Shown: in pieces, positions 885 through 14,397 of the stretch
How the letters are laid out: the number at the start of each line of letters is the position of its first letter
How positions within the stretch are numbered: the first letter of the stretch is position 1
Origin: a virus
Taxonomy: Duplodnaviria > Heunggongvirae > Uroviricota > Caudoviricetes
DNA: 18,046 bases
Strand: one strand, 5' to 3'
Virus record (IMG/VR): IMGVR_UViG_2802429220_000008
Span: 1 to 18,046 of that record
The notes under the pieces: generated by a model
What the model was told of the DNA's origin: nothing
Seen by the model: the letters and a program-made list of their open reading frames with translations, nothing else
The model's database searches: none
Position numbers and translations under genes: made by a program

Positions 885-1062
885 TATCGCGTCCTCAACA
901 ATGAATTTTGTGATGCAGTGCCTGGTGCCTCCAGGTGACGTTAACCAGTTAACAATTAACGCCGGATTAGTTGATGCTCGTTACGCCCGTAAAATACCGC
1001 CTTACTGCTTTAACTGTTCCGCGTGCGCATAGCCGCATTCACCGCATCACAAAATTCACTTT

Positions 1063-1110: not shown

Positions 1111-1403
1111 AGAGGGCGTTGCAGCGGGGTTGTCACTTAAGCGTATGGTCAACCTGACAACCCGGTGTCCTCAGCGGGGAAGGAATAACCCCGCCATACT
1201 TACCGCCGCGCCATTTCGCGGATTGCCACAACCGGAAGCGCACGGTCGAATTAAATTTAACGACTACCTACAGAGAGACGAACTTCGCCGTGCGCTTTCG
1301 CGTTATGCCCTGACTTTTCAGGGATATATCCTTTTCAGTAAACTGTCAGTGCCGGATTCTTATCCGTGTCCGGCGCACGCACTCTACCTCACCTGTGAAT
1401 AAA

Positions 1404-1790
1404 TTAATGATTAATTGATATTTTGTTGTTTGATTCAACTTTCCCATCGGATGTGTGATGCTTTAAATCACAGGAATTAATACTGCTTGCTGTAAAATGA
1501 TTTTCAAGGGGAGCTATTCGAATCCCTTTCTTTTTCATTAACAAGCCAAATCCTTTATTAATGATGTCCATTAATTCCAGGAAGTATTTTTCATGTAAAT
1601 CCTGGTTATCAGAGAGCTGCTTCTCTTCGCACAGACCGATAAAGGCACGACGCACGTTACCGGATATAGTATCGATGGTTTCTTTTTCTACAGTACTCAG
1701 GTCAAGAGTCGCCAGTTGAGAGCGAACCACATTCGATGCCATTTCCTGGAATGGTACTGGTAAATCTTTAAATTCCATCGTCAACCTCAT
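1404..1790 (-). CDS. Hypothetical early-operon protein (possibly an intact YdfB/YdfC-like gene)
   Basis: 128-aa ORF with ATGA overlap to the upstream YdfA-like gene; position between ydfA-like and dicF-like elements as in the Qin dicB operon. Confidence 0.6.
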   Translation of the reverse strand: MRLTMEFKDLPVPFQEMASNVVRSQLATLDLSTVEKETIDTISGNVRRAFIGLCEEKQLSDNQDLHEKYFLELMDIINKGFGLLMKKKGIRIAPLENHFTASSINSCDLKHHTSDGKVESNNKISINH

Positions 1791-1942
1791 CAGTCAGTGT
1801 TTCTGGTTAACCAGCGACGCTCGCCAGCTTCAGTTTTAAACGTTTTGCTTCTGGTATACGTCATCGCGGTGAACGTACCGTCCTGGTTGGGGAACACACC
1901 ACATACCAGAGATTCGTTGTTGCCAAGATCGATAGTATCCAT
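1790..1942 (-). CDS. YdfA-like small protein (DUF1391-type)
   Basis: 50 aa MDTIDLGNNESLVCGVFPNQDGTFTAMTYTRSKTFKTEAGERRWLTRNTD; GAGG 5 nt upstream of internal ATG at 1942 (track ORF 1790..2020 starts further upstream without an RBS). Confidence 0.6.
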   Translation of the reverse strand: MDTIDLGNNESLVCGVFPNQDGTFTAMTYTRSKTFKTEAGERRWLTRNTD

Positions 1943-2118
1943 GCTGACCTCATTTCCCCTTAACGCCGGGGTAGCGGAACAAAAACCTGCTGCATAGTTA
2001 AAGTTGAACCCTGCCGTCATGTTCTTACGCCTCGGGCTGGCTACTTAACCCCTGACCACTGCCGGGTAACTCGAAGTATTTCCCTGCGTTCTGTGGGGCG
2101 TGGTGGGGTAGTGGAAAT

Positions 2119-2148
2119 AATCTACAATTAAAAACTGTTTTGTGTCAA
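2119..2148 (-). promoter_or_regulatory. Candidate leftward early promoter (PL-like) embedded in the operator palindrome
   Basis: On minus strand: -35 TTGACA (2148..2143), 18-bp spacer, -10 TAGATT (2124..2119); faces the ydfA-like/dicB operon. Confidence 0.4.
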
Positions 2149-2160
2149 CAGTTTTTAATT
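2126..2160. promoter_or_regulatory. Operator palindrome (OL-like): aattaaaaactgtt-ttgtgtc-aacagtttttaatt
   Basis: Perfect 14-bp inverted arms around a 7-bp centre; same half-site (AAAAACTGT-N9-ACAGTTTTT) as the palindrome at 3161-3195 on the other side of the repressor operon. Confidence 0.65.
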
Positions 2161-2171
2161 GTTGTATTGGG

Positions 2172-2197
2172 CAAAAAAACTCCCTCGAATGAGGGAG
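2172..2197 (-). terminator. Intrinsic terminator ending the repressor-antitoxin-toxin operon
   Basis: Stem ctccctc/gagggag with loop gaat; on the minus strand it is followed by a 7-8 nt U-tract; lies 18 bp past the toxin stop. Confidence 0.6.
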
Positions 2198-2214
2198 TGT
2201 GAAAATTGTTCAGT

Positions 2215-2502
2215 TCAGATAGGGAAGGGAAATTGTCGGCGGGCATGCACAATATTTGCAATTTCAATGCTTGAAGCTGCTACTCGGTACAAAACGATAT
2301 AATTAGGGTGAACCACAATTTCCCGCAAACCGGATACTCGATCACTTGGCGGATATAGATATGGATGCTCAGAGAGGGCTAAAACAGACGTTTCAATCCG
2401 TATTTTTAGTCTGCGTGCTGCAGGAATATTTTCCTTAGCAATATAGGCTACGATCTGACGCAAATCATCGCGAGCAGATGGTAGCCACAAAATGGGTAAC
2501 AT
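2215..2502 (-). CDS. parE: ParE/RelE-superfamily type II toxin (ParE-like)
   Basis: 95 aa with typical ParE features (LWLPSARDDL, GLREIVVHPNYIVLYRV, IANIVHARR); TAATG stop/start overlap with the upstream antitoxin gene. Confidence 0.85.
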   Translation of the reverse strand: MLPILWLPSARDDLRQIVAYIAKENIPAARRLKIRIETSVLALSEHPYLYPPSDRVSGLREIVVHPNYIVLYRVAASSIEIANIVHARRQFPFPI

Positions 2503-2693
2503 TACTCGCTCCTGTTAGTTACAGCAATTTGAGCAATAAGATTCTCCATTTCAGCCATTACCTCATCATGTGGAATTGAGGGACGAGGGTCAGCAAGGCT
2601 TGACGCCACTTTAGCGCGTAACCATTCGTTGTAACTGTTTTCTTGTTCGGTAGTTTCGAATTCTGAAACTATCGGAGAAAGGGCTGTACTCAT
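2502..2693 (-). CDS. Small antitoxin paired with ParE (PaaA-like, 63 aa)
   Basis: 63-aa acidic ORF immediately upstream of and overlapping the ParE toxin; size and context match PaaA-type antitoxins of the paaR-paaA-parE three-component modules (from memory). Confidence 0.75.
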   Translation of the reverse strand: MSTALSPIVSEFETTEQENSYNEWLRAKVASSLADPRPSIPHDEVMAEMENLIAQIAVTNRSE

Positions 2694-2720
2694 GGCATAA
2701 CTCCTCTTCTTGTACTGTGG

Positions 2721-3122
2721 TCACGCCCGGCGGCTTTTTTGTGCCGCCAACCACCGGGCAATGGTTTCTTCCATTGATTTTTTCTTGTCTTTGATTTCTT
2801 GAAGCATTTTTTCTTGGTCTTCCTCTGGAAACGCACTAAAAGCCTGGAGCAGTTCGCGTTGACGAGGACCAATTTTCATCGTGTCAGGGGTGAAAATTTG
2901 CTCCCCCTCTTCAGGAGGCAATAAAAACCAATGCAATGGATGCCCTGTAACCTCAACCAGTTTATCCAAACTTGAGGCTTTAGGTGTAGCCTTACCGCTG
3001 ACCCATTGTTGAACAGTTTGTTGTGTCACACCAATTCTACGGGCAAGCTCAGCCTGGCTCCATCCAGTTTCCTGAAGAAGCTTGCTGATTCTGTACATAG
3101 ATACTTCTAGGGCGTTCATCAT
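2721..3122 (-). CDS. Prophage repressor, HTH_XRE type without a LexA-like peptidase domain (DicA/PaaR-like)
   Basis: 133 aa; N-terminal HTH (ISKLLQETGWSQAELARRIGVTQQTVQQWVSG), C-terminal SPRQRELLQAFSAFPEEDQEKM similar in style to DicA; divergent from the cro-like gene; operators on both sides. Confidence 0.8.
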   Translation of the reverse strand: MMNALEVSMYRISKLLQETGWSQAELARRIGVTQQTVQQWVSGKATPKASSLDKLVEVTGHPLHWFLLPPEEGEQIFTPDTMKIGPRQRELLQAFSAFPEEDQEKMLQEIKDKKKSMEETIARWLAAQKSRRA

Positions 3123-3160
3123 TATTCAATTTTACAGGTAAATACTGTTAAAAGCATCAC

Positions 3161-3195
3161 AATAAAAAACTGTTGATTGTGTACAGTTTTTTATT
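3161..3195. promoter_or_regulatory. Operator palindrome (OR-like): aataaaaaactgt-tgattgtgt-acagttttttatt
   Basis: Perfect 13-bp inverted arms in the repressor/cro-like intergenic region; same half-site and spacing as 2126-2160; candidate -10 TATAGT at 3208-3213 just downstream. Confidence 0.65.
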
Positions 3196-3231
3196 GTAGG
3201 CTTTGCTTATAGTTTTTTAGAGGAGAGCAAA

Positions 3232-3504
3232 ATGCTAGATAGCACTCGCGAAAAAATTAGGCAGAAATACACTCAAGCTGAAATAGGTCGTTATATGGGG
3301 GTCGCTCAACAGACAGTTTGGCAATGGTTTAGCTTTGACGTTCCCCCAAAGCAGGTAATTCCGTTATGTCAGCTAATGAAGTGGGAAGTTACCCCGCATG
3401 AAATTCGCCCTGATATTTATCCTAACCCAACCGACGGTTTACCTGTTGGATTCAAGGTTAACACATCAAATGCACCGGAGTTGATTCATGAAAATCAAGC
3501 ATGA
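3232..3504 (+). CDS. Cro-like regulator, YdaS family
   Basis: 90 aa; HTH-like AEIGRYMGVAQQTVWQWF and the YdaS-type motif TPHEIRPDIYPNP; AGGAGAG RBS; divergent from repressor. Confidence 0.75.
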   Translation: MLDSTREKIRQKYTQAEIGRYMGVAQQTVWQWFSFDVPPKQVIPLCQLMKWEVTPHEIRPDIYPNPTDGLPVGFKVNTSNAPELIHENQA

Positions 3505-3913
3505 ACACATCCGCATGGCGATGAATGCCTGGGCGCGTCCTGATGGCGAAAAAGTTCCAGTAGCTGGAATAACCCAGGCTTATTTTGAGTTGGGTATGAC
3601 GTTTCCTGAACTGTATGACGACAGCCATCCGGAAGCCCTGTCTCGTAATACCCAGAAAATTTTCCGCTGGGTAGAAAAAGACACCCCTGATGCGGTTAAA
3701 AAAATTCAGGCGTTGTTACCGGCGATCGAAAAAGCAATGCCGCCTCCACTGGTGGCCCGAATGCGCAGCCACAGTTCGGAATATCACCGGGAGCTTGTCG
3801 AGCGACGGGAGCGCCTGGTGAAAGATATCGATGAGTTTGTTGCGGCAGCGATCGTGTTGTTCGATCAGATGAATCGTGGTGGTCCGGCGGGAAATGCCGT
3901 GGTGGCGCATTGA
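3488..3913 (+). CDS. YdaT-family protein (CII-like regulator / toxic when derepressed)
   Basis: 141 aa starting MKIKHEHI, which matches my memory of YdaT; follows the YdaS-like gene with a 17-nt overlap. Confidence 0.7.
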   Translation: MKIKHEHIRMAMNAWARPDGEKVPVAGITQAYFELGMTFPELYDDSHPEALSRNTQKIFRWVEKDTPDAVKKIQALLPAIEKAMPPPLVARMRSHSSEYHRELVERRERLVKDIDEFVAAAIVLFDQMNRGGPAGNAVVAH

Positions 3914-3933
3914 TAACGTGTTCTGGGGGGGGG

Positions 3934-4899
3934 ATGAAGCTCCTTTTTGCTGAACGTCCGCTGGTTATAAACACGCAGCTGGCGATGAAAATTGGTCTGA
4001 ACGAAGCCATCGTGTTGCAGCAGTTGCATTACTGGTTGAGAGATACCGGTTCCGGCATGGAATGTGATGGTGTTCGCTGGATTTATAACACAACAGAACA
4101 ATGGCTGGAGCAGTTCCCGTTCTGGTCAGAGTCAACGTTAAAACGCGCATTTGCAAGTCTGAAAACGCTGGGGCTTTTGCGTTGCGAAAAGCTCAATAAA
4201 TCAAAGCGTGATATGACTAATTTTTACACGATTAATTACGAGAGCGAGCTTTTAAATGGTGGCAAAGTGAGCGAATCCATCAGGTCAAAATGCGCTGCTC
4301 CATCAGGTCAGAATGACACGATGGAAGGGGCCAAAATGGCACGTTCCATTGGTTCAAAACGACTCAATGTCATCGGGTCAAAATGGCCTGATGATCTTAC
4401 AGAGAATACAACAGAGATTACTACAGAGAATAAAAACACTTCTCGTCCGGAAGCTTCGCAACCGGACCCGCAGACGGTTGAACAGGATTTTTTAACCCGA
4501 CACCCTGACGCGGTTGTGTTCAGTGCAAAAAAACGCCAGTGGGGCAACCAGGAAGATTTGGCGTGTGCGCAGTGGATCTGGGGACGAATCGTGAGTCTTT
4601 ACGAGCAGGCCGCCAGCGATGATGGCGAGATTTCGCGACCGAAAGAACCCAACTGGACCGCATGGGCCAACGACGTGCGCACAATGCGGATGCTGGATGG
4701 CAGAACTCACAGACAAATTTGTGAAATGTTTGGTCGGGCGCAGCGGGATCCATTCTGGGTAAAAAATATCATGAGTCCGTCAAAGCTTCGCGAAAAATGG
4801 GATGAACTGGTTATCCGCCTGGGGCGTTCGTCTGTACAGCGTTGCGTGAATCATATTTCTGAGCCGGATACCGAAATTCCGCCGGGGTTCAGGGGGTAA
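3934..4899 (+). CDS. Replication initiator (lambda O-like / YdaU-like) containing the origin
   Basis: N-terminal domain LVINTQLAMKIGLNEAIVLQQLHYWL; internal iteron array plus AT-rich tract; start chosen at ATG 3934 after a G-rich tract (track start 3910 is TTG). Confidence 0.75.
   Translation: MKLLFAERPLVINTQLAMKIGLNEAIVLQQLHYWLRDTGSGMECDGVRWIYNTTEQWLEQFPFWSESTLKRAFASLKTLGLLRCEKLNKSKRDMTNFYTINYESELLNGGKVSESIRSKCAAPSGQNDTMEGAKMARSIGSKRLNVIGSKWPDDLTENTTEITTENKNTSRPEASQPDPQTVEQDFLTRHPDAVVFSAKKRQWGNQEDLACAQWIWGRIVSLYEQAASDDGEISRPKEPNWTAWANDVRTMRMLDGRTHRQICEMFGRAQRDPFWVKNIMSPSKLREKWDELVIRLGRSSVQRCVNHISEPDTEIPPGFRG
4276..4386. repeat. Five iterons at 23-24 bp spacing (candidate replication origin inside the initiator gene)
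   Basis: Core ggtcaaaatg at 4283, ggtcagaatg at 4306, ggccaaaatg at 4329, gttcaaaacg at 4352, ggtcaaaatg at 4376, each preceded by tccatca-like; followed by AT-rich acagagaata repeats at about 4395-4440. Confidence 0.7.
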
Positions 4900-4905
4900 C
4901 GGGCC

Positions 4906-5652
4906 ATGAAAAATATCGCGACAGGTGGTGTTCTTGAGCGTATCCGTAAGCTGACCCCGCAGCATGTAATCGCGCCGTACCGGACAGTGGACGAGTGGCG
5001 CGAGTGGCAACTGGCAGAAGGGCGAAAACGTAGCGAGGAGATCAACCGCCAGAATCGCCAGTTGCGGGTGGAAAAAATCCTGAATCGTTCGGGCATCCAG
5101 CCTCTGCACAGCAAATGCTCGTTTGCGAATTATCAGGTGCAGAACGACGGGCAAAAACATGCGCTGAGCCAGGCAAAATCCATCGCTGACGAACTGATGA
5201 CAGGGTGCACGAATTTTGTGTTCAGCGGTAAGCCGGGTACCGGAAAGAACCACCTTGCAGCCGCCATTGGCAATCATCTTCTGGCGAAAGGTCGCAGCGT
5301 GATTGTGATAACGGTGGCTGATGTGATGCTGGCGTTACACAACAGCTACGACAACAAAAACTCAGGCGAAAAATTTTTACAGGGGTTGTGTGATGTTGAC
5401 CTGCTTGTCCTGGATGAAATCGGAATGCAGCGGGATACGCGCAACGAGCAGGTCACACTGAACCAGATAGTCGACCGCAGAACGGCTTCGATGCGTAGTG
5501 TCGGAATGCTGACGAACCTGAACCACGTAGCGATGAGTACGCTTCTTGGCGAGCGTGTGATGGACCGCATGGTCATGAACGGTGGTCGCTGGGTGAATTT
5601 TAACTGGGAGAGCTGGCGTTCGAATGTCAGACACCTGAGGGTTGTGAAGTAA
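4906..5652 (+). CDS. dnaC: DnaC-like helicase loader (IstB-like AAA+ ATPase)
   Basis: 248 aa; Walker A GKPGTGKNHLAAAIG, Walker B DLLVLDEIG; near-colinear with remembered E. coli DnaC (MKN..., RSGI.PLH..CSF.NY, GMLTN.N, LGERVMDRM). Confidence 0.9.
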   Translation: MKNIATGGVLERIRKLTPQHVIAPYRTVDEWREWQLAEGRKRSEEINRQNRQLRVEKILNRSGIQPLHSKCSFANYQVQNDGQKHALSQAKSIADELMTGCTNFVFSGKPGTGKNHLAAAIGNHLLAKGRSVIVITVADVMLALHNSYDNKNSGEKFLQGLCDVDLLVLDEIGMQRDTRNEQVTLNQIVDRRTASMRSVGMLTNLNHVAMSTLLGERVMDRMVMNGGRWVNFNWESWRSNVRHLRVVK

Positions 5653-5673
5653 TTTTGTCCGGAGGAAATTTTA

Positions 5674-6444
5674 ATGGAAACCGTTTTTGACGCACTGAAA
5701 GCAATGGGAAAAGCCACATCGGTAGAACTGGCCGCGCGACTTGATATCAGTCGTGAAGAGGTTCTCAACGAGCTGTGGGAACTCAAAAGAAATGGCGTCG
5801 TTGATAAAACTGGTCACACCTGGTTTCTGGCTGGCGAAGGTGAATCCCTGGTAACCGAAGAGCGGCCAGTAAAATCTGAAGCACAGGATATGCTGACCGG
5901 GGAGGTCGAACAAAAAGTTACCGCAGACATGATGATTGAGTTTATCGGTCAGGATGGGGCTAAAACGTGTGAGGAACTGGCGGGTAAGTTCGGCATCAGT
6001 ACTCGCAAGGTTGCTTCCACGCTGGCGGTGGTAACTGCAACGGGGCGGCTGGCACGCGTTAATCAGAGCGGTAAATTTCGTTACTGCATGCCGGGCGGTA
6101 ATTTACCAGCAGAGCCGAAAGCAGCATCGGTAACGGAAAATGATGGTAAGGCCTTTCCTCAGCCAGCAGGTGTTGCGTTACCAGTCCGGGAAGCCGCAAC
6201 ACAGGAAGAAATTAAAACAGAAACTGTGGCGGACATTGTGCAGCCGTTGCTATCGTTTACCGAAACGCAAGCAGATGAGCTGATTTTTCCGTCCCTGCGC
6301 AGGGCAAACCTGGCGCTGCGCAGGGCGAAAAGTGATGTTCAGAAGTGGGAGCGAGTCTGCGCCGCGCTGCGGGAGCTGAACAAGCACCGGGATATTGTTC
6401 GACAGATTACTGATTCTTCCCGCCGTGTTGTATCGGAAAAGTGA
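5674..6444 (+). CDS. Hypothetical prophage protein with two tandem winged-helix-like segments
   Basis: 256 aa; GGAGG RBS 8 nt upstream; two similar segments ([30 protein letters not shown] and [31 protein letters not shown]). Confidence 0.65.
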
Positions 6445-6459
6445 TAGCCGGAGGCGCTT

Positions 6460-6855
6460 ATGGCGAAACCTTTTACACACGAACAGCGTGAAGAACTGAA
6501 GGCCCGAATTATCGGGCTGGTACGCAAAAATGAACGCATGACGATATCACAACTGGAGAGAGCGACGGGAGCAGGCTGGCATTCAGTCAGACGTTGCCTT
6601 GTGGATGTACTGGCTTGTGGCGATTTATACATGCCCGGTAAATACGGTGTTTTTACATCAGAACAGGTGTATCGCGTATGGCGTAAGGCAGCGGAGAAAG
6701 CAACCGACCAGACATTGATTCGAAAGTTACCAGACGGAGAAATACGCCGCTACGACAGACAACAGAACATAATCTGTGGCGAGTGCCGGAAGAGTGAAGT
6801 TATGCTGCGTGTACTGGCGTTCTATCAGGGCAATTTTCAGGAGGCGGTACTGTGA
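6460..6855 (+). CDS. Hypothetical prophage protein
   Basis: 131 aa; GGAGG RBS 6 nt upstream of ATG; ends in a 4-nt overlap with the next ORF. Confidence 0.6.
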   Translation: MAKPFTHEQREELKARIIGLVRKNERMTISQLERATGAGWHSVRRCLVDVLACGDLYMPGKYGVFTSEQVYRVWRKAAEKATDQTLIRKLPDGEIRRYDRQQNIICGECRKSEVMLRVLAFYQGNFQEAVL

Positions 6856-6911
6856 GTGAATTAGCTATCAGGCTTCAATTGTCGCTGGCATTCGCATCAA
6901 AGGAGAATGAG

Positions 6912-7496
6912 ATGATCACTTTTACAAAAGAGCAGTTAATCAGTCATGTTAGTGAAAATGTAAAGGCGATGAAATTTGCAGTAAAACAGACAGTATTCAA
7001 AAATTCTCTCGAGGCAATTGAGTTGGATTTAGCACTGGCCCTTGTTGCTCAGGCTTCGCTGGAAGCAGAGCCCGTGCTTTATATGAATCGATTTACCGGA
7101 AAGACATTCTCACTGGAAGAGCAACCCGGTGCTGATAAGGAACCGGAAATATACGTGCCGCTATATGCTGCCCCGCCAGACAGCGCCGCCATGCTTCAGG
7201 CTGGAAACTTTCGGGAAAATAAGGGTTCGTCAACCAATAATTTTCGGGAAATCTCGGAAACGTCAACCAACTATCCGGTAACTCCGGATGGTTGGATAAG
7301 CTGTAGTGAGCGAATGCCGGATGATGGTCAGCACGTAATTATTTTATGTGATGGCGCATTCGTTCTTTATGCGCAATATCGAGACGGTGAGTTTTTTGAT
7401 GTAGTCCGTAATGGTGATGAATTTTTCGAAACACAGAGCCGCAATGTAACCGACTGGATGCCGCTACCAGAACCGCCGCAGGAGGTGCGCCAATGA
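6912..7496 (+). CDS. DUF551-domain phage protein
   Basis: C-terminal DGWISCSERMPDDGQHVIILCDG...WMPLPEPP is DUF551-like; start placed at ATG 6912 after AAGGAG (track start 6852 is GTG without RBS). Confidence 0.65.
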   Translation: MITFTKEQLISHVSENVKAMKFAVKQTVFKNSLEAIELDLALALVAQASLEAEPVLYMNRFTGKTFSLEEQPGADKEPEIYVPLYAAPPDSAAMLQAGNFRENKGSSTNNFREISETSTNYPVTPDGWISCSERMPDDGQHVIILCDGAFVLYAQYRDGEFFDVVRNGDEFFETQSRNVTDWMPLPEPPQEVRQ

Positions 7497-7576
7497 TCTG
7501 GCCTGAAGCCTTTGCAATTACAGGCGTTGCTATAGCTATTGATTTTTTAGTATATGTTATTTGTCGGTGGGGGTAA
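7493..7576 (+). CDS. Small hydrophobic peptide (27 aa)
   Basis: MIWPEAFAITGVAIAIDFLVYVICRWG; GGAGGTG 5 nt upstream; ATGA overlap with the DUF551 gene stop. Below the track size cut-off. Confidence 0.45.
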   Translation: MIWPEAFAITGVAIAIDFLVYVICRWG

Positions 7577-7611
7577 AAACGTTCGCCGGGATTCACACCA
7601 AAGGAGGGAAT

Positions 7612-7716
7612 ATGTCGGATGATATTTCACTGGCAATGGAAGGTGCTCTGGCTGTTATTGCTGTTGTGGGCGTTTACTGCCTGGTTGTGTTTTTGATGGA
7701 TCGACTAGGGAACTGA
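7612..7716 (+). CDS. Small hydrophobic membrane peptide (34 aa)
   Basis: MSDDISLAMEGALAVIAVVGVYCLVVFLMDRLGN; AAGGAGGG RBS 5 nt upstream. Below the track size cut-off. Confidence 0.5.
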   Translation: MSDDISLAMEGALAVIAVVGVYCLVVFLMDRLGN

Positions 7717-7758
7717 ATTCATTACGATATGGGAATTCCCATATCGGGTAAAAACGGT

Positions 7759-7786
7759 TTGCGGTAAAGCGAGAGTTAAGTAGAAT
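7759..7786 (+). promoter_or_regulatory. Candidate promoter of the hok/mok mRNA
   Basis: -35 TTGCGG (7759-7764), 16-bp spacer, -10 TAGAAT (7781-7786); predicted 5' leader begins with gcgggtgcttgagg, complementary to the 3' end of the transcript. Confidence 0.45.
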
Positions 7787-7849
7787 TGCTGCGGGTGCTT
7801 GAGGCTGTCTGCCTCGGGCATGCCACCGTAAGGCAGACAGAGAAAAGCC

Positions 7850-7915
7850 CCAGTTAACATTACGCGTCCTGCAAGACGCCTAACATTAATCTGAGGCCAA
7901 TTTCATGCTAGACAT
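7850..7915 (-). ncRNA. Predicted Sok-like antisense RNA region (boundaries uncertain)
   Basis: Inferred from hok-family organisation; candidate minus-strand promoter -35 TTGCCT (7948..7943), 17-bp spacer, -10 TAACCT (7925..7920) would give an RNA antisense to the mok start; no clean terminator found. Confidence 0.25.
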
Positions 7916-8117
7916 ATGTAGGTTAGCCTCTTACGCGCCGAAAGGCAAGGAGAAGCAGGCTATGAAGCAGCAAAAGGCGATGTTAATCGCCCTGATCGTC
8001 ATCTGTATCACCGTCATAGTGACGGCACTGGTAACGAGGAAAGACCTCTGCGAGGTACGAATCCGAACCGGCCAGACGGAGGTCGCTGTCTTCACAGCTT
8101 ACGAACCTGAGGAGTAA
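7905..8117 (+). CDS. Mok-like reading frame (in-frame leader encompassing hok)
   Basis: 70-aa ORF MLDICRLASYAPKGKEKQAMKQQK... with GAGG 8 nt upstream; same frame as hok, resembling the arrangement remembered for MokC/HokC. Confidence 0.5.
   Translation: MLDICRLASYAPKGKEKQAMKQQKAMLIALIVICITVIVTALVTRKDLCEVRIRTGQTEVAVFTAYEPEE
7962..8117 (+). CDS. hok: Hok/Gef-family type I toxin (HokD/RelF-like, 51 aa)
   Basis: MKQQKAMLIALIVICITVIVTALVTRKDLCEVRIRTGQTEVAVFTAYEPEE: single TM helix plus conserved TRKDLCE...REVA.F.AYE motif. Confidence 0.9.
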   Translation: MKQQKAMLIALIVICITVIVTALVTRKDLCEVRIRTGQTEVAVFTAYEPEE

Positions 8118-8185
8118 GAGACCTGGCGAGGGAGAAATCCCTCGCCACCTCTGATGAATCAGGCATCCTCAACGCACCCGCACTT

Positions 8186-8212
8186 AACCCGCTTCGGCGG
8201 GTTTTGTTTTTT
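8186..8212 (+). terminator. Intrinsic terminator of the hok transcript
   Basis: Stem aacccgc/gcgggtt, loop ttcg, followed by ttgtttttt; sits directly after the fbi-like element at 8167-8181. Confidence 0.7.
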
Positions 8213-8284
8213 CCTGGCATTCTGGTTTACAATTCGCACGCCAGCCTGAACAACTGGCACCTGCTGCGCCAGCAGAGACAACCG

Positions 8285-8563
8285 ATGGCGCACGATACCA
8301 AATTATACAATTCTGATGATTCTGCCGTCTTTGCCAGCAGGCGCGGACGGTGTTTTCACGCATTCAAATCTGACTGGTACCAGCATCCCCCATGCACTGA
8401 AGAACAGGCCGAATGGCTCATTCAGTGTTACCGCAGGCGCGGATGCGAGGTTAAAAAAGCCCTTAGCCTCGACTACCGTCACTGGATAATCTCCGTCAGG
8501 CTCCCTTACTCCGAACGGCCACCGCGTCCGTCCCGCACATTCCAGCAACGGATCTGGAGGTAA
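8285..8563 (+). CDS. Hypothetical protein (position equivalent to rem in Qin); start uncertain
   Basis: ORF 8204..8563 in track; ATG at 8285 avoids overlap with the hok terminator; weak RBS; Cys/Arg-rich product. Confidence 0.4.
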   Translation: MAHDTKLYNSDDSAVFASRRGRCFHAFKSDWYQHPPCTEEQAEWLIQCYRRRGCEVKKALSLDYRHWIISVRLPYSERPPRPSRTFQQRIWR

Positions 8564-8564
8564 T

Positions 8565-9614
8565 GTGCGGGTATTACTTCGACCTGTTCTGGTACCGGAA
8601 CTCGGTCTGGTTATCGTTAAGCCAGGCCGTGAATCAATGTCAGCATTCCATAACGGCAGAATACTGGTGGAGCCGGAACCAAAAAGCATGCGAGCTCTGC
8701 CGTCCGGGGTTGTACCTGCCGTTCACCAGCCGCTGGCGGAAGATAAATCACTACTGCCATTTTTCAGCGATGAGCGGGTGAGCCGTGCTGCGGGTGGCGC
8801 TGGTGCACTGTCTGACTGGTTATTACGTCACGTGAAATCCTGCCAGTGGCTACACGGTGATTATCATCACAGCGAAACCGTCATTCACCGTTACGGTACC
8901 GGCGCAATGGTGTTGTGCTGGCACTGCGACAACCAGCTGCGTGACCAGACATCCGAATCACTCGAGCAACTTGCTCATCAAAACCTGTCAGCATGGATGA
9001 TTGACGTCATCGGTCACGCAATAAGCGGTACGCAGGAGCGTGAATTATCTCTGGCTGAATTATCCTGGTGGGCGGTCCGCAATCAGGTGGCGGACGCGCT
9101 ACCGGAAGCGGTATTACGTCGTTCGCTGGGGTTGCGTGCGGAAAAAATCCGCTCCATGTACCGTGAAAGCGACATCGTACCGGGAGAGCAGACCGCCACC
9201 AGCATACTGAAACAGCGCACAAAAAATCTTGCGCCGCTGCCTCACGCCCACCAGCAACAGAACCCACCACAGGAAAAGACGGTGGTCAGCATTGCCGTTG
9301 ATCCTGAGTCTCCGGAATCTTTCATGAAACGACCTAAACGTCGCCGCTGGGTTAACGAGAAATACACTCGCTGGGTGAAGACACAGCCGTGTGCGTGTTG
9401 TGGTAAGCCAGCCGACGATCCCCATCACCTGATTGGTCATGGTCAGGGCGGAATGGGGACAAAATCTCACGATATTTTCACGCTACCGCTGTGTCGGGAG
9501 CATCATAACGAGCTTCATGCGGATCCGCTGGCGTTCGAAGAAAAGCATGGTTCTCAGGTTGATTTAATTTTTCGTTTTCTTGATCACGCCTTTGCAACCG
9601 GTGTGCTTGGGTAA
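8565..9614 (+). CDS. DUF968-domain protein (YdfU-like)
   Basis: 349 aa; C-terminal Cys/His-rich motif CACCGKPADDPHHLIGHGQGGMGTKSHD...LCREHHNELH; GGAGG just upstream of GTG start at 8565. Confidence 0.75.
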   Translation: MRVLLRPVLVPELGLVIVKPGRESMSAFHNGRILVEPEPKSMRALPSGVVPAVHQPLAEDKSLLPFFSDERVSRAAGGAGALSDWLLRHVKSCQWLHGDYHHSETVIHRYGTGAMVLCWHCDNQLRDQTSESLEQLAHQNLSAWMIDVIGHAISGTQERELSLAELSWWAVRNQVADALPEAVLRRSLGLRAEKIRSMYRESDIVPGEQTATSILKQRTKNLAPLPHAHQQQNPPQEKTVVSIAVDPESPESFMKRPKRRRWVNEKYTRWVKTQPCACCGKPADDPHHLIGHGQGGMGTKSHDIFTLPLCREHHNELHADPLAFEEKHGSQVDLIFRFLDHAFATGVLG

Positions 9615-9627
9615 AAGGGGGGTATTG

Positions 9628-9990
9628 ATGTGTATAGAGTTTGTTTTGCCTTACCCGCCGACGGTGAATACTTACTGGCGACGTCGTGGCAGCACATATT
9701 TTGTATCAAAAGCCGGGGAGCGTTATCGCCGGGCAGTGGCGTTTATTGTTCGCCAGCAGCAGTTGAAATTAAGCCTGTCCGGACGGCTGGCAATAAAAAT
9801 TATTGCAGAGCCACCGGATAAGCGCCGCCGTGACCTGGACAATATTCTGAAAGCACCGCTGGATGCGCTGACGCACGCGGGGTTGTTAATGGACGATGAA
9901 CAGTTTGATGAAATCAATATTGTACGTGGTCAGCCAGTATCTGGTGGACGGCTGGAAATAAGAATTACAGAGGTGGGTGTGCATGAATAA
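9628..9990 (+). CDS. rusA: RusA Holliday junction resolvase
   Basis: 120 aa from ATG 9628: LPYPPTVNTYW...RRRDLDNILKAPLDALTHAGLLMDDEQ...GGRLEIRITE, colinear with E. coli RusA. Confidence 0.9.
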   Translation: MCIEFVLPYPPTVNTYWRRRGSTYFVSKAGERYRRAVAFIVRQQQLKLSLSGRLAIKIIAEPPDKRRRDLDNILKAPLDALTHAGLLMDDEQFDEINIVRGQPVSGGRLEIRITEVGVHE

Positions 9991-10672
9991 CCAGTATTTA
10001 CAGTTTGTTCGTGAGCAACTCATGATTGCCACTGCAGATCTCAGTGGGTCGACAAAAGGCCAGCTGGAAGCCTGGCAGGAAAATGCCCTGTTCGATACAG
10101 GGCGTTACAGACGCAAAAAAATTCGTTACCGCGATGAGGTAACTGGAAAAATGATCACGCGGGATAATCCCCCGATCCAGGGTAAACAATCACTGGCGAA
10201 AGGCTCATCAATTGCGCTGGTCAGTCCTGTTGAGTTTGCAACATCATCGTGGCGGCGTGCCCTTCTGGAACTGGAAGAACATCAGAAGGCGTGGTTGTTG
10301 TGGTGTTATGGCGGAAACATTTGCTGGGAGCATCAGATCGCGATAACGCAGTGGGTGTGGAGTGAATTTAAAACTCAGTCCGGCTCCAGAAAAATTGCAG
10401 TGAAAACGCTGGAGCGTGTGAAGAAGTTGATCTGGCTGGCGGCACAGGATGTCAGAGGATGGGTTACCGGGTGTGAGGTCTACCAGAGACAGGAGCTTGC
10501 CAGACTGTGTGGAGTTAAGCCTGATAACTGGAGCCATAATTATGCGAACTACTGGCGTGAGATGTGCGATATTTTTAAGCGCCTCGATAGAGAATCCTTG
10601 ATTTGCTCCGTGAAAATAAGAGCGCAACAAAAAGCGACCTTTTCACGACGAGATATTGCAAAAGTCAATTAA
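9983..10672 (+). CDS. Late-gene antiterminator Q-like protein (Qin QuuQ / phage 82-type), assigned mainly by position
   Basis: 229 aa directly after rusA and before a short terminated region; start ATG 9983 overlaps the rusA stop with GAGG upstream; no sequence-level confirmation. Confidence 0.5.
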   Translation: MNNQYLQFVREQLMIATADLSGSTKGQLEAWQENALFDTGRYRRKKIRYRDEVTGKMITRDNPPIQGKQSLAKGSSIALVSPVEFATSSWRRALLELEEHQKAWLLWCYGGNICWEHQIAITQWVWSEFKTQSGSRKIAVKTLERVKKLIWLAAQDVRGWVTGCEVYQRQELARLCGVKPDNWSHNYANYWREMCDIFKRLDRESLICSVKIRAQQKATFSRRDIAKVN

Positions 10673-10732
10673 ATCGCGTATGTTTCGTATAAATCTGATA
10701 TTTTGCCGATTTTGTACGCGATGGCAAAGTAA

Positions 10733-10760
10733 GAAAAAACCACCGCTAGGTGGTTTTTTT
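10733..10760 (+). terminator. Intrinsic terminator about 60 bp after the Q-like gene (tR'-like candidate)
   Basis: A-tract, stem ccacc/ggtgg with loop gcta, then 7 Ts; candidate promoter elements TTGCAA (10656-10661) and TATGTT (10679-10684) upstream. Confidence 0.6.
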
Positions 10761-10883
10761 ATGTCCGAAAATCTCGTCAGTACAGTAAACGCGCTGGTGG
10801 TGGTGAATACCGGTCTTTCAGCTTGCTGGCTTTTTTGACAAGAGTTATTGGTGTGTCACGTTAACCGGAAAAGGGAAAAAGAC

Positions 10884-11081
10884 ATGCTGAAACAGCAGGA
10901 TATGACCGAAACCGCCAGAGTGGTGTTTAATGAATTAAGCGTCACTGAACCGGCGACAGTCGGGGAGATTGCGCAGAATACTTATCTTTCACGTGAACGC
11001 TGCCAGTTAATACTGACCCAGCTTGTTATGGCGGGGCTGGCAGACTATCAGTTCGGTTGTTACAGACGCCTTCAGTCCTGA
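10884..11081 (+). CDS. Small winged-helix-like protein (65 aa)
   Basis: MLKQQDMTETARVVFNELSVTEPATVGEIAQNTYLSRERCQLILTQLVMAGLADYQF; start moved to ATG 10884; followed by a terminator. Confidence 0.5.
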   Translation: MLKQQDMTETARVVFNELSVTEPATVGEIAQNTYLSRERCQLILTQLVMAGLADYQFGCYRRLQS

Positions 11082-11091
11082 AGGCTTTTTT
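11068..11091 (+). terminator. Intrinsic terminator
   Basis: Stem gccttcag/ctgaaggc around loop tc, then tttttt; overlaps the stop codon of the preceding small gene. Confidence 0.6.
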
Positions 11092-11232
11092 ATTTGTGGT
11101 AAATGGGCGGCTGGTGGGTGTTAGGGGCACTCACCAGCCATCTGCTCATGCGTCCGGATCACAAGCAAACCTCAGGCCCATCTGCTTTGCGCAAAAGCAG
11201 AATGAGCCTATCAGAGACAGGCTTAATGATCC

Positions 11233-12291
11233 ATGCTTAATACTGTAAAAATATCCAGTTGTGAGTTAATCAACGCCGACTGCCTGGAATTTATCCGGTC
11301 GTTACCCGAAAATTCTGTTGACCTGATAGTCACGGACCCGCCGTACTTTAAAGTGAAGCCTGAGGGCTGGGATAACCAGTGGAAGGGCGACGATGATTAC
11401 CTGAAGTGGCTGGACCAGTGTCTTGCGCAGTTCTGGCGGGTGCTGAAACCTGCCGGAAGTCTTTACCTGTTCTGTGGCCATCGCCTGGCATCTGATATCG
11501 AAATCATGATGCGTGAACGCTTCAGTGTGCTGAACCATATTATCTGGGCGAAGCCGTCCGGACGCTGGAACGGGTGCAACAAGGAAAGCCTGCGGGCGTA
11601 TTTTCCGGCAACAGAGCGCATTCTGTTCGCGGAACATTATCAGGGGCCGTATCGTCCGAAAGATGCCGGGTATGAGGCGAAGGGCAGGGCACTGAAACAG
11701 CATGTGATGGCCCCGCTGATTGCTTACTTTCGTGATGCGCGCGCTACCCTGGGGATAACGGCAAAACAGATTGTGGATGCCACAGGAAAGAAAAACATGG
11801 TGTCGCACTGGTTCAGTGCCAGCCAGTGGCAGTTACCGAACGAGGATGATTACAGAAAACTTCAGGTGCTGTTTGCCCGGGTGGCAGAAGAGAAACATCA
11901 GCGGGGTGAACTGGAAAAGCCACATCACCAACTGGTCAGCACATACAGTGAGCTGAACCGGCAGTATGCCAGCCTGCTGGAAGAGTACAAATCACTGCGG
12001 CGTTATTTTTCCGTATCGGCAGCCGTTCCTTATACGGATGTCTGGACGCACAAGCCTGTGCAGTATTATCCGGGCAAACATCCCTGTGAAAAACCGGCAG
12101 ATATGTTGCGGCAAATGATTACCGCCAGCAGTCGTCCGGGTGACCTGGTTGCAGATTTCTTCATGGGGTCCGGTTCGACAGTCAAAGCAGCGATGGCGCT
12201 GGGGCGTCGTGCAATTGGTGTCGAGCTGGAGGCTGAACGTTTTGAGCAGACCGCAAGGGATGTACAGAATTTAATCAGAAAGAGAGAGTGA
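11233..12291 (+). CDS. Orphan DNA methyltransferase (N6-adenine or N4-cytosine, DPPY motif)
   Basis: 352 aa; DLIVTDPPYF near the N-terminus and FFMGSGST near the C-terminus; no adjacent restriction endonuclease ORF. Confidence 0.8.
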   Translation: MLNTVKISSCELINADCLEFIRSLPENSVDLIVTDPPYFKVKPEGWDNQWKGDDDYLKWLDQCLAQFWRVLKPAGSLYLFCGHRLASDIEIMMRERFSVLNHIIWAKPSGRWNGCNKESLRAYFPATERILFAEHYQGPYRPKDAGYEAKGRALKQHVMAPLIAYFRDARATLGITAKQIVDATGKKNMVSHWFSASQWQLPNEDDYRKLQVLFARVAEEKHQRGELEKPHHQLVSTYSELNRQYASLLEEYKSLRRYFSVSAAVPYTDVWTHKPVQYYPGKHPCEKPADMLRQMITASSRPGDLVADFFMGSGSTVKAAMALGRRAIGVELEAERFEQTARDVQNLIRKRE

Positions 12292-12331
12292 TATTGCTGA
12301 ATTTATTCTGTAACGTTATCATTATGTTATC

Positions 12332-12407
12332 GGCCCTTTAGCTCAGTGGTGAGAGCGAGCGACTCATAATCGCCAGGTCGCTGGTTCAAATCCAGCAAGG
12401 GCCACCA
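12332..12407 (+). tRNA. tRNA with CAU anticodon (Met, or Ile2 if lysidine-modified)
   Basis: Manual fold: acceptor ggccctt/aagggcc, D-arm gctc..gagc, anticodon loop cuCAUaa, T-arm gctgg-ttcaaat-ccagc, 3' ACCA. Confidence 0.85.
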
Positions 12408-12408
12408 A

Positions 12409-12474
12409 CCGCCACTAGCTCATCAGGAAAGAACGTCACCCTGTGCGAGATTCGGAGTCCCCGGTGGCGGTCCA
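12409..12474 (+). other. tRNA-like remnant (perfect acceptor stem and CCA but too short, no canonical T-arm)
   Basis: ccgccac ... gtggcgg followed by tcca, 66 nt overall, sitting between two intact tRNAs where Stx-type phages carry three tRNAs. Confidence 0.35.
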
Positions 12475-12487
12475 TTATCAGCATTAT

Positions 12488-12564
12488 GCGTTGTTAGCTC
12501 AGCCGGACAGAGCAATTGCCTTCTAAGCAATCGGTCACTGGTTCGAATCCAGTACAACGCGCCA
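12488..12564 (+). tRNA. tRNA-Arg (anticodon UCU)
   Basis: Manual fold: acceptor gcgttgt/acaacgc, D-arm gctc..gagc, anticodon stem attgc/gcaat with loop cuUCUaa, T-arm cactg-gttcgaat-ccagt, GCCA end. Confidence 0.85.
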
Positions 12565-12575
12565 TATTTATTTAC

Positions 12576-12617
12576 CTGGCTCGCTTTTGCGGGCCTTTTT
12601 TGTATCTGCGTTACACC
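12576..12617 (+). repeat. Terminator-like element, copy A (ggctcgc-tttt-gcgggcc + ttttttgtatctgcg)
   Basis: Imperfect hairpin plus T-tract directly downstream of tRNA-Arg; about 80 percent identical to 13173-13213. Confidence 0.6.
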
Positions 12618-12653
12618 ATTAACTAATAAATCGAGTGCTTATCAGGAGGCTAT

Positions 12654-12878
12654 GTGAAAAAACTGATGGTGACGATTGGTCCGTTCGAAACAGAAGTTAG
12701 TTTTCGTGTTGTTCAGGGGGAGAGTGTACTTGTTGAAGATGTATTTCATGGAAAATCAACAGGTCCTTATGTAAAAGAATATCTTATCGACGCCACGGAT
12801 GAAAATATTGAGGTGGTGTACGATTCCGTCAATCACCCTGATTTGATCATTAAGGCAAAATTGAAGCCACTTTATTGA
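12654..12878 (+). CDS. Hypothetical small protein (74 aa), AT-rich cargo gene
   Basis: AGGAGG 4 nt upstream of GTG start; MKKLMVTIGPFETEVSFRVVQGESVLVEDVFHGK...; no family recognised. Confidence 0.5.
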   Translation: MKKLMVTIGPFETEVSFRVVQGESVLVEDVFHGKSTGPYVKEYLIDATDENIEVVYDSVNHPDLIIKAKLKPLY

Positions 12879-12930
12879 TCTGACCGGGAGCAATCATAAA
12901 ATATCTCTGGGTACCCACAAGGAGATAAAT

Positions 12931-13140
12931 ATGTTTGTTTCTGAAGTGTTAATGGAAGATAAGGACAACAAAGGATGGGTTAAAGGTTGGGCTGTGGTAA
13001 GAAGCTCGCCCTGGCATCTTGTTGGGGTTTTTGCGACAGAGGAAGACGCAGAAACGGAAGCAAGAAAGATGGGAGATAAGTACGAGGTTCACTATGGCTC
13101 GCATCGAACAGGAAGTGATGATTTTGTCTGGGGGGAGTAA
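12931..13140 (+). CDS. Hypothetical small protein (69 aa)
   Basis: AAGGAG 6 nt upstream of ATG; MFVSEVLMEDKDNKGWVKGWAVVRSSPWHLVGVFATEEDAETEARKMG...; no family recognised. Confidence 0.55.
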   Translation: MFVSEVLMEDKDNKGWVKGWAVVRSSPWHLVGVFATEEDAETEARKMGDKYEVHYGSHRTGSDDFVWGE

Positions 13141-13172
13141 CAGTCGTTTAACCCCAGAATAATCCCGTAACT

Positions 13173-13213
13173 GAGGTCGCTATTGGCGGCCTTTTTTGTA
13201 TCCGCGCCACGCC
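13173..13213 (+). repeat. Terminator-like element, copy B (ggtcgc-tatt-ggcggcc + ttttttgtatccgcg)
   Basis: Second copy of the element at 12576-12617; together they bracket the two small ORFs. Confidence 0.6.
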
Positions 13214-13329
13214 CGGCACATATCAACCACAGAGCCTTTCGGGGGTGAGCTTACGGAGTGGTCAGTGTGACTTTCTCTGTGGGCAGATCGCTCCCGGGCG
13301 TTGGCTCACCCACCCAAAGGAACGTCACG

Positions 13330-13761
13330 ATGTTTGGTATTTTCAAAAAGAAAACCCGCAGAGCAGCAGCGGAAATTAAAAAGTTTGAGAAACGTGATCT
13401 GGCACAGGCGGTTATTAATGCTGCCTATCTGGTGGCCTATGCAGATGGTGAATGTGAGGCTTCAGAGAAAGCGAAGATCGAGCAGGTCTTGCGTAACCAG
13501 CCAGCGTTGTCCGCGTTTACGTCAGAAATTAATGCTATCAGTGCCACGATCACAGGTCAGCTTGACACCAACTTTAAAATTGGTCGTCGAGCGGCGTTGC
13601 GTGAAATTGAAGATGTGAAACACGATACGCGTGAAGCGGAAGATGTGCTGGATGTGGCGGTGGCCATTGCTGAAGCAGATGGTGAAATTGAGCCGGAAGA
13701 GCGTAAGGTTCTGGAAGAGATCGCCGGTGTTCTTGGCCTGCGACTGGAGAACCACCTGTGA
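13330..13761 (+). CDS. TerB-like domain protein
   Basis: 143 aa from ATG 13330 (AGGA 8 nt upstream); two TerB-like repeats AYADGECEASEKAKIEQVL and AEADGEIEPEERKVLEEIAGVLGL. Confidence 0.6.
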   Translation: MFGIFKKKTRRAAAEIKKFEKRDLAQAVINAAYLVAYADGECEASEKAKIEQVLRNQPALSAFTSEINAISATITGQLDTNFKIGRRAALREIEDVKHDTREAEDVLDVAVAIAEADGEIEPEERKVLEEIAGVLGLRLENHL

Positions 13762-13922
13762 CGGTAAAACTGCGTCTGGCCGCTGTGGCACTCCTGCTGT
13801 TTCTGGTGGTGATGGTGGACTTCACCAGCAGGATCATGTCGGTGCTGGCGGATGGAGTGCTGGTGGTCGGTATTGTGGTGGTGCTTTTTCCTTTGGTGAA
13901 AAAGGAGATGTCAGGTAGTTAG
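13758..13922 (+). CDS. Small two-helix membrane protein (54 aa), translationally coupled to the TerB-like gene
   Basis: GTG start overlapping the TerB-like stop (GTGA); GGAGA 8 nt upstream; LLLFLVVMV and VLVVGIVVVLF hydrophobic segments. Below the track size cut-off. Confidence 0.35.
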   Translation: MTVKLRLAAVALLLFLVVMVDFTSRIMSVLADGVLVVGIVVVLFPLVKKEMSGS

Positions 13923-14156
13923 CCGGGTATCAGTCATGCCCTGAAAATTTTAAATGTCTCACAATTCAGACGGTTGACAGTTGTCTGGTTTGCGGGGAGT
14001 TTGTTAAAAGAAACTGGCATGGTGAATCCCCCTGAGCGGAGGGGCATATCAGCGCAGGTGTTTCTACTCTATCCTTTCTGTGCGGGTTCAGGTGCTGATA
14101 CTGAACTCACCGGGAGGCACCCGGCACCATGCAAGAAAAAGAATGTGCATGCAAAC

Positions 14157-14184
14157 ATGCCCCTCTCCGGAGGGGCATTTTTAT
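14157..14184 (+). terminator. Intrinsic terminator
   Basis: Perfect 9-bp stem atgcccctc/gaggggcat, loop tccg, then ttttat. Confidence 0.6.
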
Positions 14185-14397
14185 GGGTAAAAAATGCCCG
14201 AATGGGTTCGGGCAATAGCATGAGATACTGATATTGTTGTGTTGTTATCGTGTGGATTTTAACCAGGGTTTATCAGGCTGCGCAACTGCGTGGCCTTTTT
14301 TCATTTCTTGGGCTGTAGTCCCCGTGTGTCATTCAGGCTTCCGGACTACAGCCCACTCCATATCTGATTTAATACACTATCCCGGCCGGGAGGAATA

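Follow-up and report, generated by a model that had tools for sequence, protein, structure and literature searches.

Two adenine methyltransferases without sequence specificity, M.EcoGII and M.EcoGI, are known from prophages of Escherichia coli O104:H4 C227-11 (Murray et al., 2018; PMC5778455). They are identical at 333 of 349 positions (95%), M.EcoGI being likewise non-specific, and both are unexpressed in the lysogen and slow growth when they are expressed (PMC5778455); silence in the lysogen and toxicity have also been described for M.EcoGII-type enzymes in later work (PMC12707154). Homologues from O111 Shiga toxin-producing E. coli with 92-93% similarity are listed as non-specific by REBASE and gave no methylome signal in the lysogen (PMC6602927), and reconstructed ancestors of M.EcoGII stay largely non-sequence-specific (the SUPREM paper, PMC11551740). 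The family is described as orphan (PMC5778455, PMC6602927, PMC12707154), and the authors of the M.EcoGII study proposed that these enzymes defeat restriction in the next host and only guessed at transcriptional silencing as the cause of their silence (PMC5778455). Here we analysed a stretch of 18,046 nucleotides (nt) from the IMG/VR virus record IMGVR_UViG_2802429220_000008 (positions 1 to 18,046; hereafter the window), the early-to-late half of a lambdoid prophage that carries a gene of this family. Nothing new is added by the gene itself, another copy of a methylase that is already sold as a reagent and used for mapping chromatin. What is new is the structured leader in front of it, an element supported by covariation that is strictly linked to a toxic enzyme, has no counterpart in Rfam, occurs in hundreds of enterobacterial prophages and may control translation of the methylase.

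The product of the methylase gene (coordinates of all features in Table 1) matches PF01555 (N6_N4_Mtase) in Pfam over residues 29-340 (E 2e-44, 152.6 bits, curated cutoff 26.7). Its DPPY motif lies at residues 35-38 (nt 11335-11346, within VTDPPYF) and its FxGxG motif at residues 310-314 (FMGSG; nt 12160-12174, within DFFMGSGST), so that DPPY near the N terminus, a recognition domain and FxGxG near the C terminus follow each other in the beta-class order; the Protein Data Bank relatives 8urk, M.RsrI, CcrM and MboIIA align as two stretches on either side of residues ~115-280. In PADLOC it is assigned to MTase_II (PDLC03265, E 3.4e-159). With M.EcoGII, for which we relied on machine-read PDF text with visible errors (supplement 5 of PMC11551740), it shares 320 of 349 residues over the full length, a figure of ~92% that is approximate because of the quality of this reference and probably lies slightly below the real value. 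The only gaps are two of one residue each, which resemble reading errors, and none falls in the linker and recognition domain. The protein is also 97% identical to P0002, an E. coli cluster representative, and the DNA of the window shows 89.8% nucleotide identity to phage 1720a-02, the methylase of which has been named very similar to M.EcoGII (PMC5778455). The segment 11100-12600 matches 291 phage records, chiefly of Stx2-converting phages, as well as thousands of E. coli genomes.

Judged by its sequence, the gene is another allele of the M.EcoGII/M.EcoGI family and known in kind, and its product is predicted to methylate adenines in essentially any sequence context. It shares with both enzymes the beta-class motif order, a length of 349-352 amino acids (aa), the location on a prophage and the lack of an endonuclease partner; it differs from M.EcoGII by ~27 substitutions and three extra C-terminal residues, and its activity is a prediction. 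We found no sign of membership in the Dam family: the motif order is not that of the alpha class (FxGxG first, DPPY last), no Dam model is among the NCBIfam matches, all of which lie far under their cutoffs (best 112.8 bits vs 292), and the 'dam' label in the Citrobacter phiNP record is a name only. The DPPY methyltransferase reported in the initial annotation, where the M.EcoGII family had not been recognised, is hence supported and can be named more precisely, but the start given there, 11170, falls in the untranslated leader, the gene itself starting at 11233.

When upstream regions from phages of E. coli, Shigella, Citrobacter and Klebsiella were aligned, the ~130 nt between the second hairpin behind Q and the ATG of the methylase proved near-invariant in long blocks, whereas the adjoining small open reading frame (ORF) diverges. 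Across 58 loci of different genera the mean identity to the window was 79.0% for the leader, 72.4% for the methylase coding sequence and 62.1% for the preceding 132 nt, and in 56 of them the leader exceeded the coding sequence in conservation. This constraint does not act on a protein, since the ORF that starts at ATG 11103 (48 aa, with a stop codon that runs into the methylase ATG), which we had considered as a coupling peptide, is not conserved, being ended by a stop after 7 codons in most relatives and its frame also being broken by indels. Directly 5' of P1 (11093-11103) a conserved TGTG(G/A)AAAT resembles an extended -10 element (TGnGAAAAT).

Five helices, P1 to P5, were derived with RNAalifold and by inspection, and a covariance model (R1) was built on 28 diverse sequences. 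It recovers the leader in the window (11093-11238, 110 bits, E 5e-26) and ahead of the methylase gene in all 60 chosen loci, with 62-165 bits. The leader of the window folds with -65.5 kcal/mol (z = -4.6). The pairing was evaluated in a first set of 60 sequences and in a second, more divergent set of 52 distinct sequences from IMG/VR (Yersinia-, Ewingella- and Serratia-like). In the first set 92.9% of the cells were paired (31-42% in slid controls) with a covariation score of 0.140 (0.067 when shuffled), in the second 84.2% (32-47%) with a score of 0.264 (0.130), and in neither set did any of the 500 shuffles reach the observed pairing or covariation values. Changes on both sides affected 18 of 37 pairs in the first set (8.3 +/- 1.6 in shuffles; 0/500); in the second they amounted to 181 cells (66.7 +/- 6.2; 0/500) and 19 of 37 pairs (15.6 +/- 1.2; 2/500). 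Both alignments were fitted to the covariance model, which favours structure, a bias that is bounded by the slid controls.

Among the individual helices, P2 has pairs changed on both sides at 9 of 12 positions in the first set and at 10 of 12 in the second, and P3 varies in a similarly compensated manner (pair 55:79 CG31/AU11/UA11/UG6 in the first set, pair 59:77 UA23/CG17 in the second). For P4, a UA to GC compensation was found in 4 sequences of the first set, and the second set offers the pairs 98:108 (GC32/UA19) and 94:112 (UA28/CG16). P1 hardly varies and shows a single AU compensation. Three of the five helices are supported by covariation in two sequence sets, and the leader consists of a conserved core (P1-P3 and P4) followed by a variable part that adjoins the start codon.

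P4 corresponds to the palindrome ctgctttgcgcaaaagcag (11182-11200), which had been reported before as an imperfect palindrome about 40 bp upstream of the gene. It is real and its position was about right, but it is a helix of the larger leader rather than an isolated site: as a hairpin, TCTGCTTT (11181-11188) and AAAGCAGA (11194-11201) form 8 fully complementary base pairs (bp) around a 5-nt loop, the last of them 32 nt ahead of the ATG. The window contains 17 perfect 8-bp hairpins with loops of 3-8 nt, compared with 2.0 +/- 1.7 after dinucleotide shuffling, so that any given one is unlikely to be due to chance. The inner GCUUU/AAAGC (11184-11188 / 11194-11198) is conserved in relatives with compensatory changes, and the outer 2 bp are not, being paired in 14/58 and 37/58 sequences.

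The association of the leader with the methylase is strict. A scan of IMG/VR with the core pattern TCACAAGCNAACCN{2,3}GGCCCA returned at least 119 matching stretches; among the matches listed, 117 of 119 have a methylase homologue downstream on the same strand, the other two ending at a contig edge, and the distance from the core pattern to the methylase start is 52-53 nt in 116 of these 117. In 80 species genomes with a homologue (62-92% protein identity) the full leader was present in 52 loci, which brings the number to 61 overall. In a divergent group of Serratia-like loci (L237-L262 in IMG/VR, about 600-610) the ATG inside TTATGATC serves as the methylase start; it lies 6-7 nt ahead of the E. 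coli-type one and follows an ordinary AAGGG Shine-Dalgarno sequence, which indicates that the start-adjoining part of the leader has been rebuilt and P1-P4 have been kept.

None of the 4227 families of Rfam 15 matches the leader at gathering thresholds, and permissive searches (E up to 10) returned chance-level hits only, on the P2 hairpin (P26 and mir-2008; 12-17 bits), so that its identity with a known RNA family was discarded. We also found no description of it in the literature, the published work on M.EcoGII and M.EcoGI mentioning neither the conserved leader nor the small ORF upstream, and it is thus apparently undescribed. With the riboswitches and cis-leaders of Rfam 15 it has in common the covarying stems, highly conserved junction and loop bases, the strict association with one gene family and a conserved 5' core followed by a more variable part at the start codon; it differs from the riboswitches in that no family matches and that a switch between two folds is only predicted for it.

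No AGGAGG-like sequence is present near the AUG. Instead, a near-invariant UGAUC, conserved in three alignments (A4, A7, A8), sits 1 nt upstream of it as a possible non-canonical ribosome-binding element, which we take to be complementary to the GAUCA of 16S rRNA just 5' of the anti-Shine-Dalgarno sequence. Across leaders the P3 loop carries GGAUCA or GGUCA, and in the minimum-energy fold of the window the GGAUCA of this loop (11156-11161) pairs with UGAUCC before the AUG, while AUGGGC/GCUCAU (P1') replaces P1 and P3. In 47 of 60 sequences this alternative has a lower energy than the fold supported by covariation, and 95% and 82% of its cells are paired in the two sets. We keep it as a hypothesis, from which a switch between two states, with the start region hidden in one and exposed in the other, would plausibly follow. 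In SfV-type leaders (L003 SfV, 2930-2945 vs 2975-2990) the P3 loop contains GCUUACUG, which is identical to the 3' arm of P5 (GCUUACUG-AUC), and the 5' arm of P5 therefore has two possible partners there; in the window allele this duplication is less exact.

The late position of the gene, postulated in the initial annotation, is borne out by the order Q, two terminators, methylase, tRNAs, terminator and lysis genes, all on the plus strand, the methylase being the first large gene past Q and two intrinsic terminators and co-oriented with the tRNAs and lysis genes. The two terminators ahead of the methylase span 10734-10759 and 11068-11085, and a T run comes after each. No sigma-70 consensus promoter was scored on the plus strand between these terminators. 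The counterpart of Q in the prophage of the closest complete genome, that of the bovine E. coli OkiPb01678 (97.7% identity over 5 kb), is annotated as antitermination protein Q, and the Q-antitermination scheme of lambdoid late genes has been described for Stx phages (PMC7547250). By analogy, the segment 10682-10766, which ends at a strong bidirectional terminator, is probably a short constitutive pR' transcript like StxS/IsrK, and the first terminator is probably its tR', the promoter position being inferred. An isrK-like Rfam match at 10682-10760 is weak and sub-threshold (19.4 bits, E 0.076, gathering score 50), and a candidate promoter, TTGCAA-17-TATGTT at 10656-10684, lies under the scan threshold. 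In relatives the stem of the second hairpin is kept through compensatory changes, and its T run is sometimes absent.

The same gene order is found in SfV, phiP27, mEp460, cdtI, phiNP and 1720a-02 behind differing Q types. In these lambdoid phages a cassette of small ORF, hairpin, leader and methylase (L24 in phiP27, orf48 in SfV, gp53 in mEp460, orf56 in cdtI, 'dam' in phiNP) lies directly past Q and ahead of tRNAs, stx or lysis genes, with 72-95% nucleotide identity across the stretch of intergenic sequence and leader. Unlike there, the tRNAs of the window are followed by TerB, DUF3927 and small-RNA genes and a NanS-p-like esterase gene instead of stx. The cassette is a movable module that is found behind some Q types only. 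E. coli Sakai Sp5, the classic Stx2a phage (L317 1024-1466), lacks the cassette in the interval from Q to the tRNAs.

From our point of view, the locus as a whole is best explained by an M.EcoGII-family enzyme with Q-dependent late expression and a leader that provides a second layer of control, a reading to which we would assign a probability of about 0.8. After induction, Q readthrough past the terminators would lead to transcription of the methylase, as the architecture of lambdoid phages suggests. Given its ~92% identity to M.EcoGII, the enzyme would then methylate adenines of the replicating phage DNA in almost any context, and the packaged genomes may withstand most adenine-sensitive restriction in the next host, which is the accepted, still proposed, role of the family. 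In the lysogen the toxic enzyme would be kept off, as shown for M.EcoGII itself. The leader would act in cis on the mRNA and set the level of methylase translation, the alternative pairing possibly hiding UGAUC before the AUG, with a ligand, a protein or temperature as conceivable triggers of the switch. One could speculate, and we offer this more specific view tentatively, that the leader represents an undescribed class of cis-regulatory RNA, riboswitch-like or protein-responsive, by which lambdoid prophages of E. coli, Shigella, Salmonella, Klebsiella, Citrobacter, Yersinia, Serratia and relatives control whether a toxic non-specific methylase is translated; P1-P2-P3 and P4 might be its sensor and the UGAUC-AUG region its output, toggling between an open fold and one in which the anti-Shine-Dalgarno-like GGAUCA masks it. 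For the question of how M.EcoGII-type enzymes are held silent and yet deployed in time, the structured leader offers a concrete, mutable target. If it is a cis-element, it would be one of few structured ones to have escaped recognition in E. coli and its closest relatives, possibly useful for expressing toxic methylases and for predicting which prophages release restriction-proof DNA.

Several observations weigh against this explanation. With regard to the enzyme, the identity to M.EcoGII is approximate, some of the ~27 differing positions lie within the target-recognition domain, and we did not find an experimental demonstration of the anti-restriction role in the literature for any family member. 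With regard to the leader, P1 is beyond the reach of the covariation test because it is almost invariant, the proportion of paired P5 cells falls from 91% in the close to 68% in the divergent set, and the variation at the pairs of the alternative fold is within the range of the shuffles. The minus strand folds well too (z = -4.2), and the counts of G.U vs A.C (126 vs 58 in one set, 105 vs 114 in the other) do not discriminate between the strands. The methylase genes of Erwinia endophytica and of a Pantoea have no leader, and in Xenorhabdus and Photorhabdus it is short (~85 nt; loci L059-L086, about 2915-3000), keeping GTGAAATGG.CGGCTGG...CCAGCC, i.e. the P2 hairpin and flanking pairing, and lacking the 3' arm of P1, P3 and P4. 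Finally, the TGTG(G/A)AAAT motif, if active, could start transcription within P1/P2 and so give rise to a Q-independent methylase mRNA.

The orphan state that had been proposed for the methyltransferase holds for every region covered. Searches of Pfam, PHROGs and PADLOC revealed no restriction enzyme among the ORFs of the window, the methylase being the sole PADLOC match; the annotation of the closest prophage lists no endonuclease over 25 kb, from the exonuclease genes to the portal gene, and none adjoins the homologous methylase in nine phage or prophage records. The neighbours of the gene are a 65-aa ORF without assigned function and two tRNAs and not the adjacent endonuclease by which Type II restriction-modification systems are recognised. 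The DUF968 protein, which has a weak HNH signal and homologues annotated as 'HNH endonuclease' in SfV and mEp460, was considered as the missing endonuclease and rejected, as its gene belongs to the early Nin-type region, has no PADLOC match and is not beside the methylase in 1720a-02 or phiP27. Of the two roles suggested before, protection from restriction and epigenetic action, the latter is the weaker one, since a non-specific enzyme that is off in lysogens makes a poor epigenetic regulator.

Other explanations of the enzyme and of its leader have to be weighed against this background. The names under which NCBI and PADLOC file the family, 'site-specific DNA-methyltransferase' and 'Type II methyltransferase', together with the recognition-domain substitutions of the window allele relative to M.EcoGII, could point to an orphan methyltransferase that is sequence-specific and acts on a short defined motif; such names are generic, however, and given the ~92% match to M.EcoGII over the full length, gapless through linker and recognition domain, and the non-specificity of both M.EcoGI and the reconstructed ancestors, we regard it as improbable that the enzyme recognises a defined motif. 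The enzyme might also be one half of a restriction-modification system with its endonuclease outside the window, which shows only 18 kb of the prophage, and in other Stx phages M.EcoGIII and R.EcoGIII do make up such a complete system (PMC6602927). Against this stand the 25 kb of the closest prophage without an annotated endonuclease and the nine records, the description of the family as orphan and the fact that a meaningful cognate site is impossible for a non-specific methylase, which makes a partner endonuclease very improbable indeed.

As for the leader, the palindrome and its surroundings could act as DNA, either as an operator for the small winged-helix-like product or as a Dam/SeqA-sensitive GATC site. 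DNA palindromes too are preserved by compensatory changes, the strand counts and the well-folding minus strand are compatible with either strand, the GATC before the start codon is near-invariant, a small putative DNA-binding ORF is often located upstream, and TGTG(G/A)AAAT resembles an extended -10 element; yet separate covarying helices, two of them long and irregular (P2 with its 12 bp and bulges), suit a folded single strand better, 24 of 78 loci have the leader without the small ORF, and the element is placed between terminator and start codon on the transcribed strand of the operon. A role at the DNA level or in antisense therefore keeps some probability because of the unsettled strand counts and the stable minus-strand fold, and we consider it unlikely. 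Likewise, the leader could be a stable processed small RNA with host transcripts as its targets in trans, comparable to StxS or AgvB of the same type of prophage, considering that the late regions of enterohaemorrhagic E. coli prophages are rich in such RNAs (PMC4104026, PMC7547250), that the window itself carries STnc100 and AgvB, and that the very stable P1'-P2 hairpin is retained by itself in Xenorhabdus and Photorhabdus. The fixed distance to the methylase start in the scan of IMG/VR, the occurrence nowhere else among the 119 matches listed and the lack of a terminator between leader and methylase gene speak for an element acting in cis instead, and a trans-acting RNA appears to us a distinctly unlikely explanation.

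In the com-mom operon of phage Mu a small ORF lies just upstream of the modification gene, and an mRNA structure at the start codon hides the ribosome-binding site. The proposed control of the methylase resembles this arrangement, and in both systems the DNA modification enzyme is toxic, acts broadly and stays silent in lysogens (PMC12707154). There is no homology between them, though, the small ORF of the cassette having weak winged-helix signals and no zinc-finger cysteine pairs and being absent from 24 of the 78 methylase-bearing loci, and the single hairpin of com-mom contrasts with a multi-helix element of ~130 nt. The resemblance is meant as an analogy. The winged-helix matches of the small ORF are all sub-threshold (TrmB E 0.0024, MarR_2 E 0.036), with no significant Pfam family. 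In 54 of 78 loci, Xenorhabdus and Photorhabdus included, a homologue precedes the methylase gene by at most 330 nt, and since it is found in these only, its candidacy as an obligatory partner or Com analogue was dropped.

Table 1. Coordinates of the features in the window, in window order.
Feature	Position	Strand	Evidence or remark
ParE toxin and PaaA2-type antitoxin genes	2215-2693	-	addiction-type module beside the repressor gene
cI-like repressor, Cro/YdaS- and YdaT-like genes			follow the toxin-antitoxin genes
O-like and DnaC-like replication genes; DUF1627, DUF977, DUF551 genes			follow the repressor region
hok/sok locus, Nin-like region	7793-8117	+	Rfam sok 114 bits; Pfam HOK_GEF
DUF968 gene	8565-9614		RusA next, then Q
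Late-gene antiterminator Q	9977..10672	+	PF06323 Phage_antiter_Q, E 3.7e-83
First intrinsic terminator past Q	10734..10766	+	11-bp perfect stem AAAAAACCACC/GGTGGTTTTTT, then T run
Small ORF, 65 aa, frequent upstream partner of the methylase	10884..11081	+	phrog_331 (unknown function), E 1e-37
Second terminator-like hairpin, overlaps small ORF stop codon	11068..11095	+	GCCTTCAG-TCC-TGAAGGC, then TTTTTTATTT
Structured leader of the methylase gene, P1-P5	11101..11232	+	covariance model, covariation
Three-way junction P1-P2-P3	11104..11180	+	
P1	11104-11108 / 11176-11180		UGGGC/GCCCA, encloses P2 and P3
P2	11109-11120 / 11128-11139		12-bp hairpin with bulges
P3	11143-11150 / 11160-11167		conserved CA/AC internal loop
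P4 hairpin (palindrome)	11181..11201	+	8-bp stem, 5-nt loop
P5 hairpin	11203..11225	+	TGAGCCT / AGGCTTA; ends 7 nt before ATG
UGAUC before start codon, near-invariant	11227..11231	+	possible non-canonical ribosome-binding element
M.EcoGII-family beta-class DNA adenine methyltransferase gene	11233..12291	+	ATG start, 352 aa; PF01555
tRNA, CAU anticodon (ileZ-type)	12332..12407	+	ARAGORN tRNA-Met(cat); Rfam tRNA 72.5 bits
tRNA-Arg (UCU)	12488..12564	+	ARAGORN; Rfam tRNA 70.1 bits
Intrinsic terminator after tRNAs	12578..12605	+	GGCTCGC-TTTT-GCGGGCC, then TTTTTTGTAT
Small ORFs phrog_2571 and phrog_4280, TerB-domain protein (13258-13761), DUF3927	within 12600-14400		
STnc100	13988-14188	+	Rfam full-length, 151.6 bits
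AgvB (anti-GcvB small RNA)	14189-14250	-	Rfam full-length, 96.5 bits
NanS-p-like esterase, holin, DUF1327, lysozyme genes			follow the small-RNA genes

The counterparts of the CAU tRNA are annotated as tRNA-Ile in relatives. In Stx phages stxAB follow the ileZ/arg tRNAs, of which the window has two (CAU and UCU) and Sakai Sp5 three. Further downstream, STnc100 and AgvB lie back to back and directly upstream of the NanS-p-like esterase gene.

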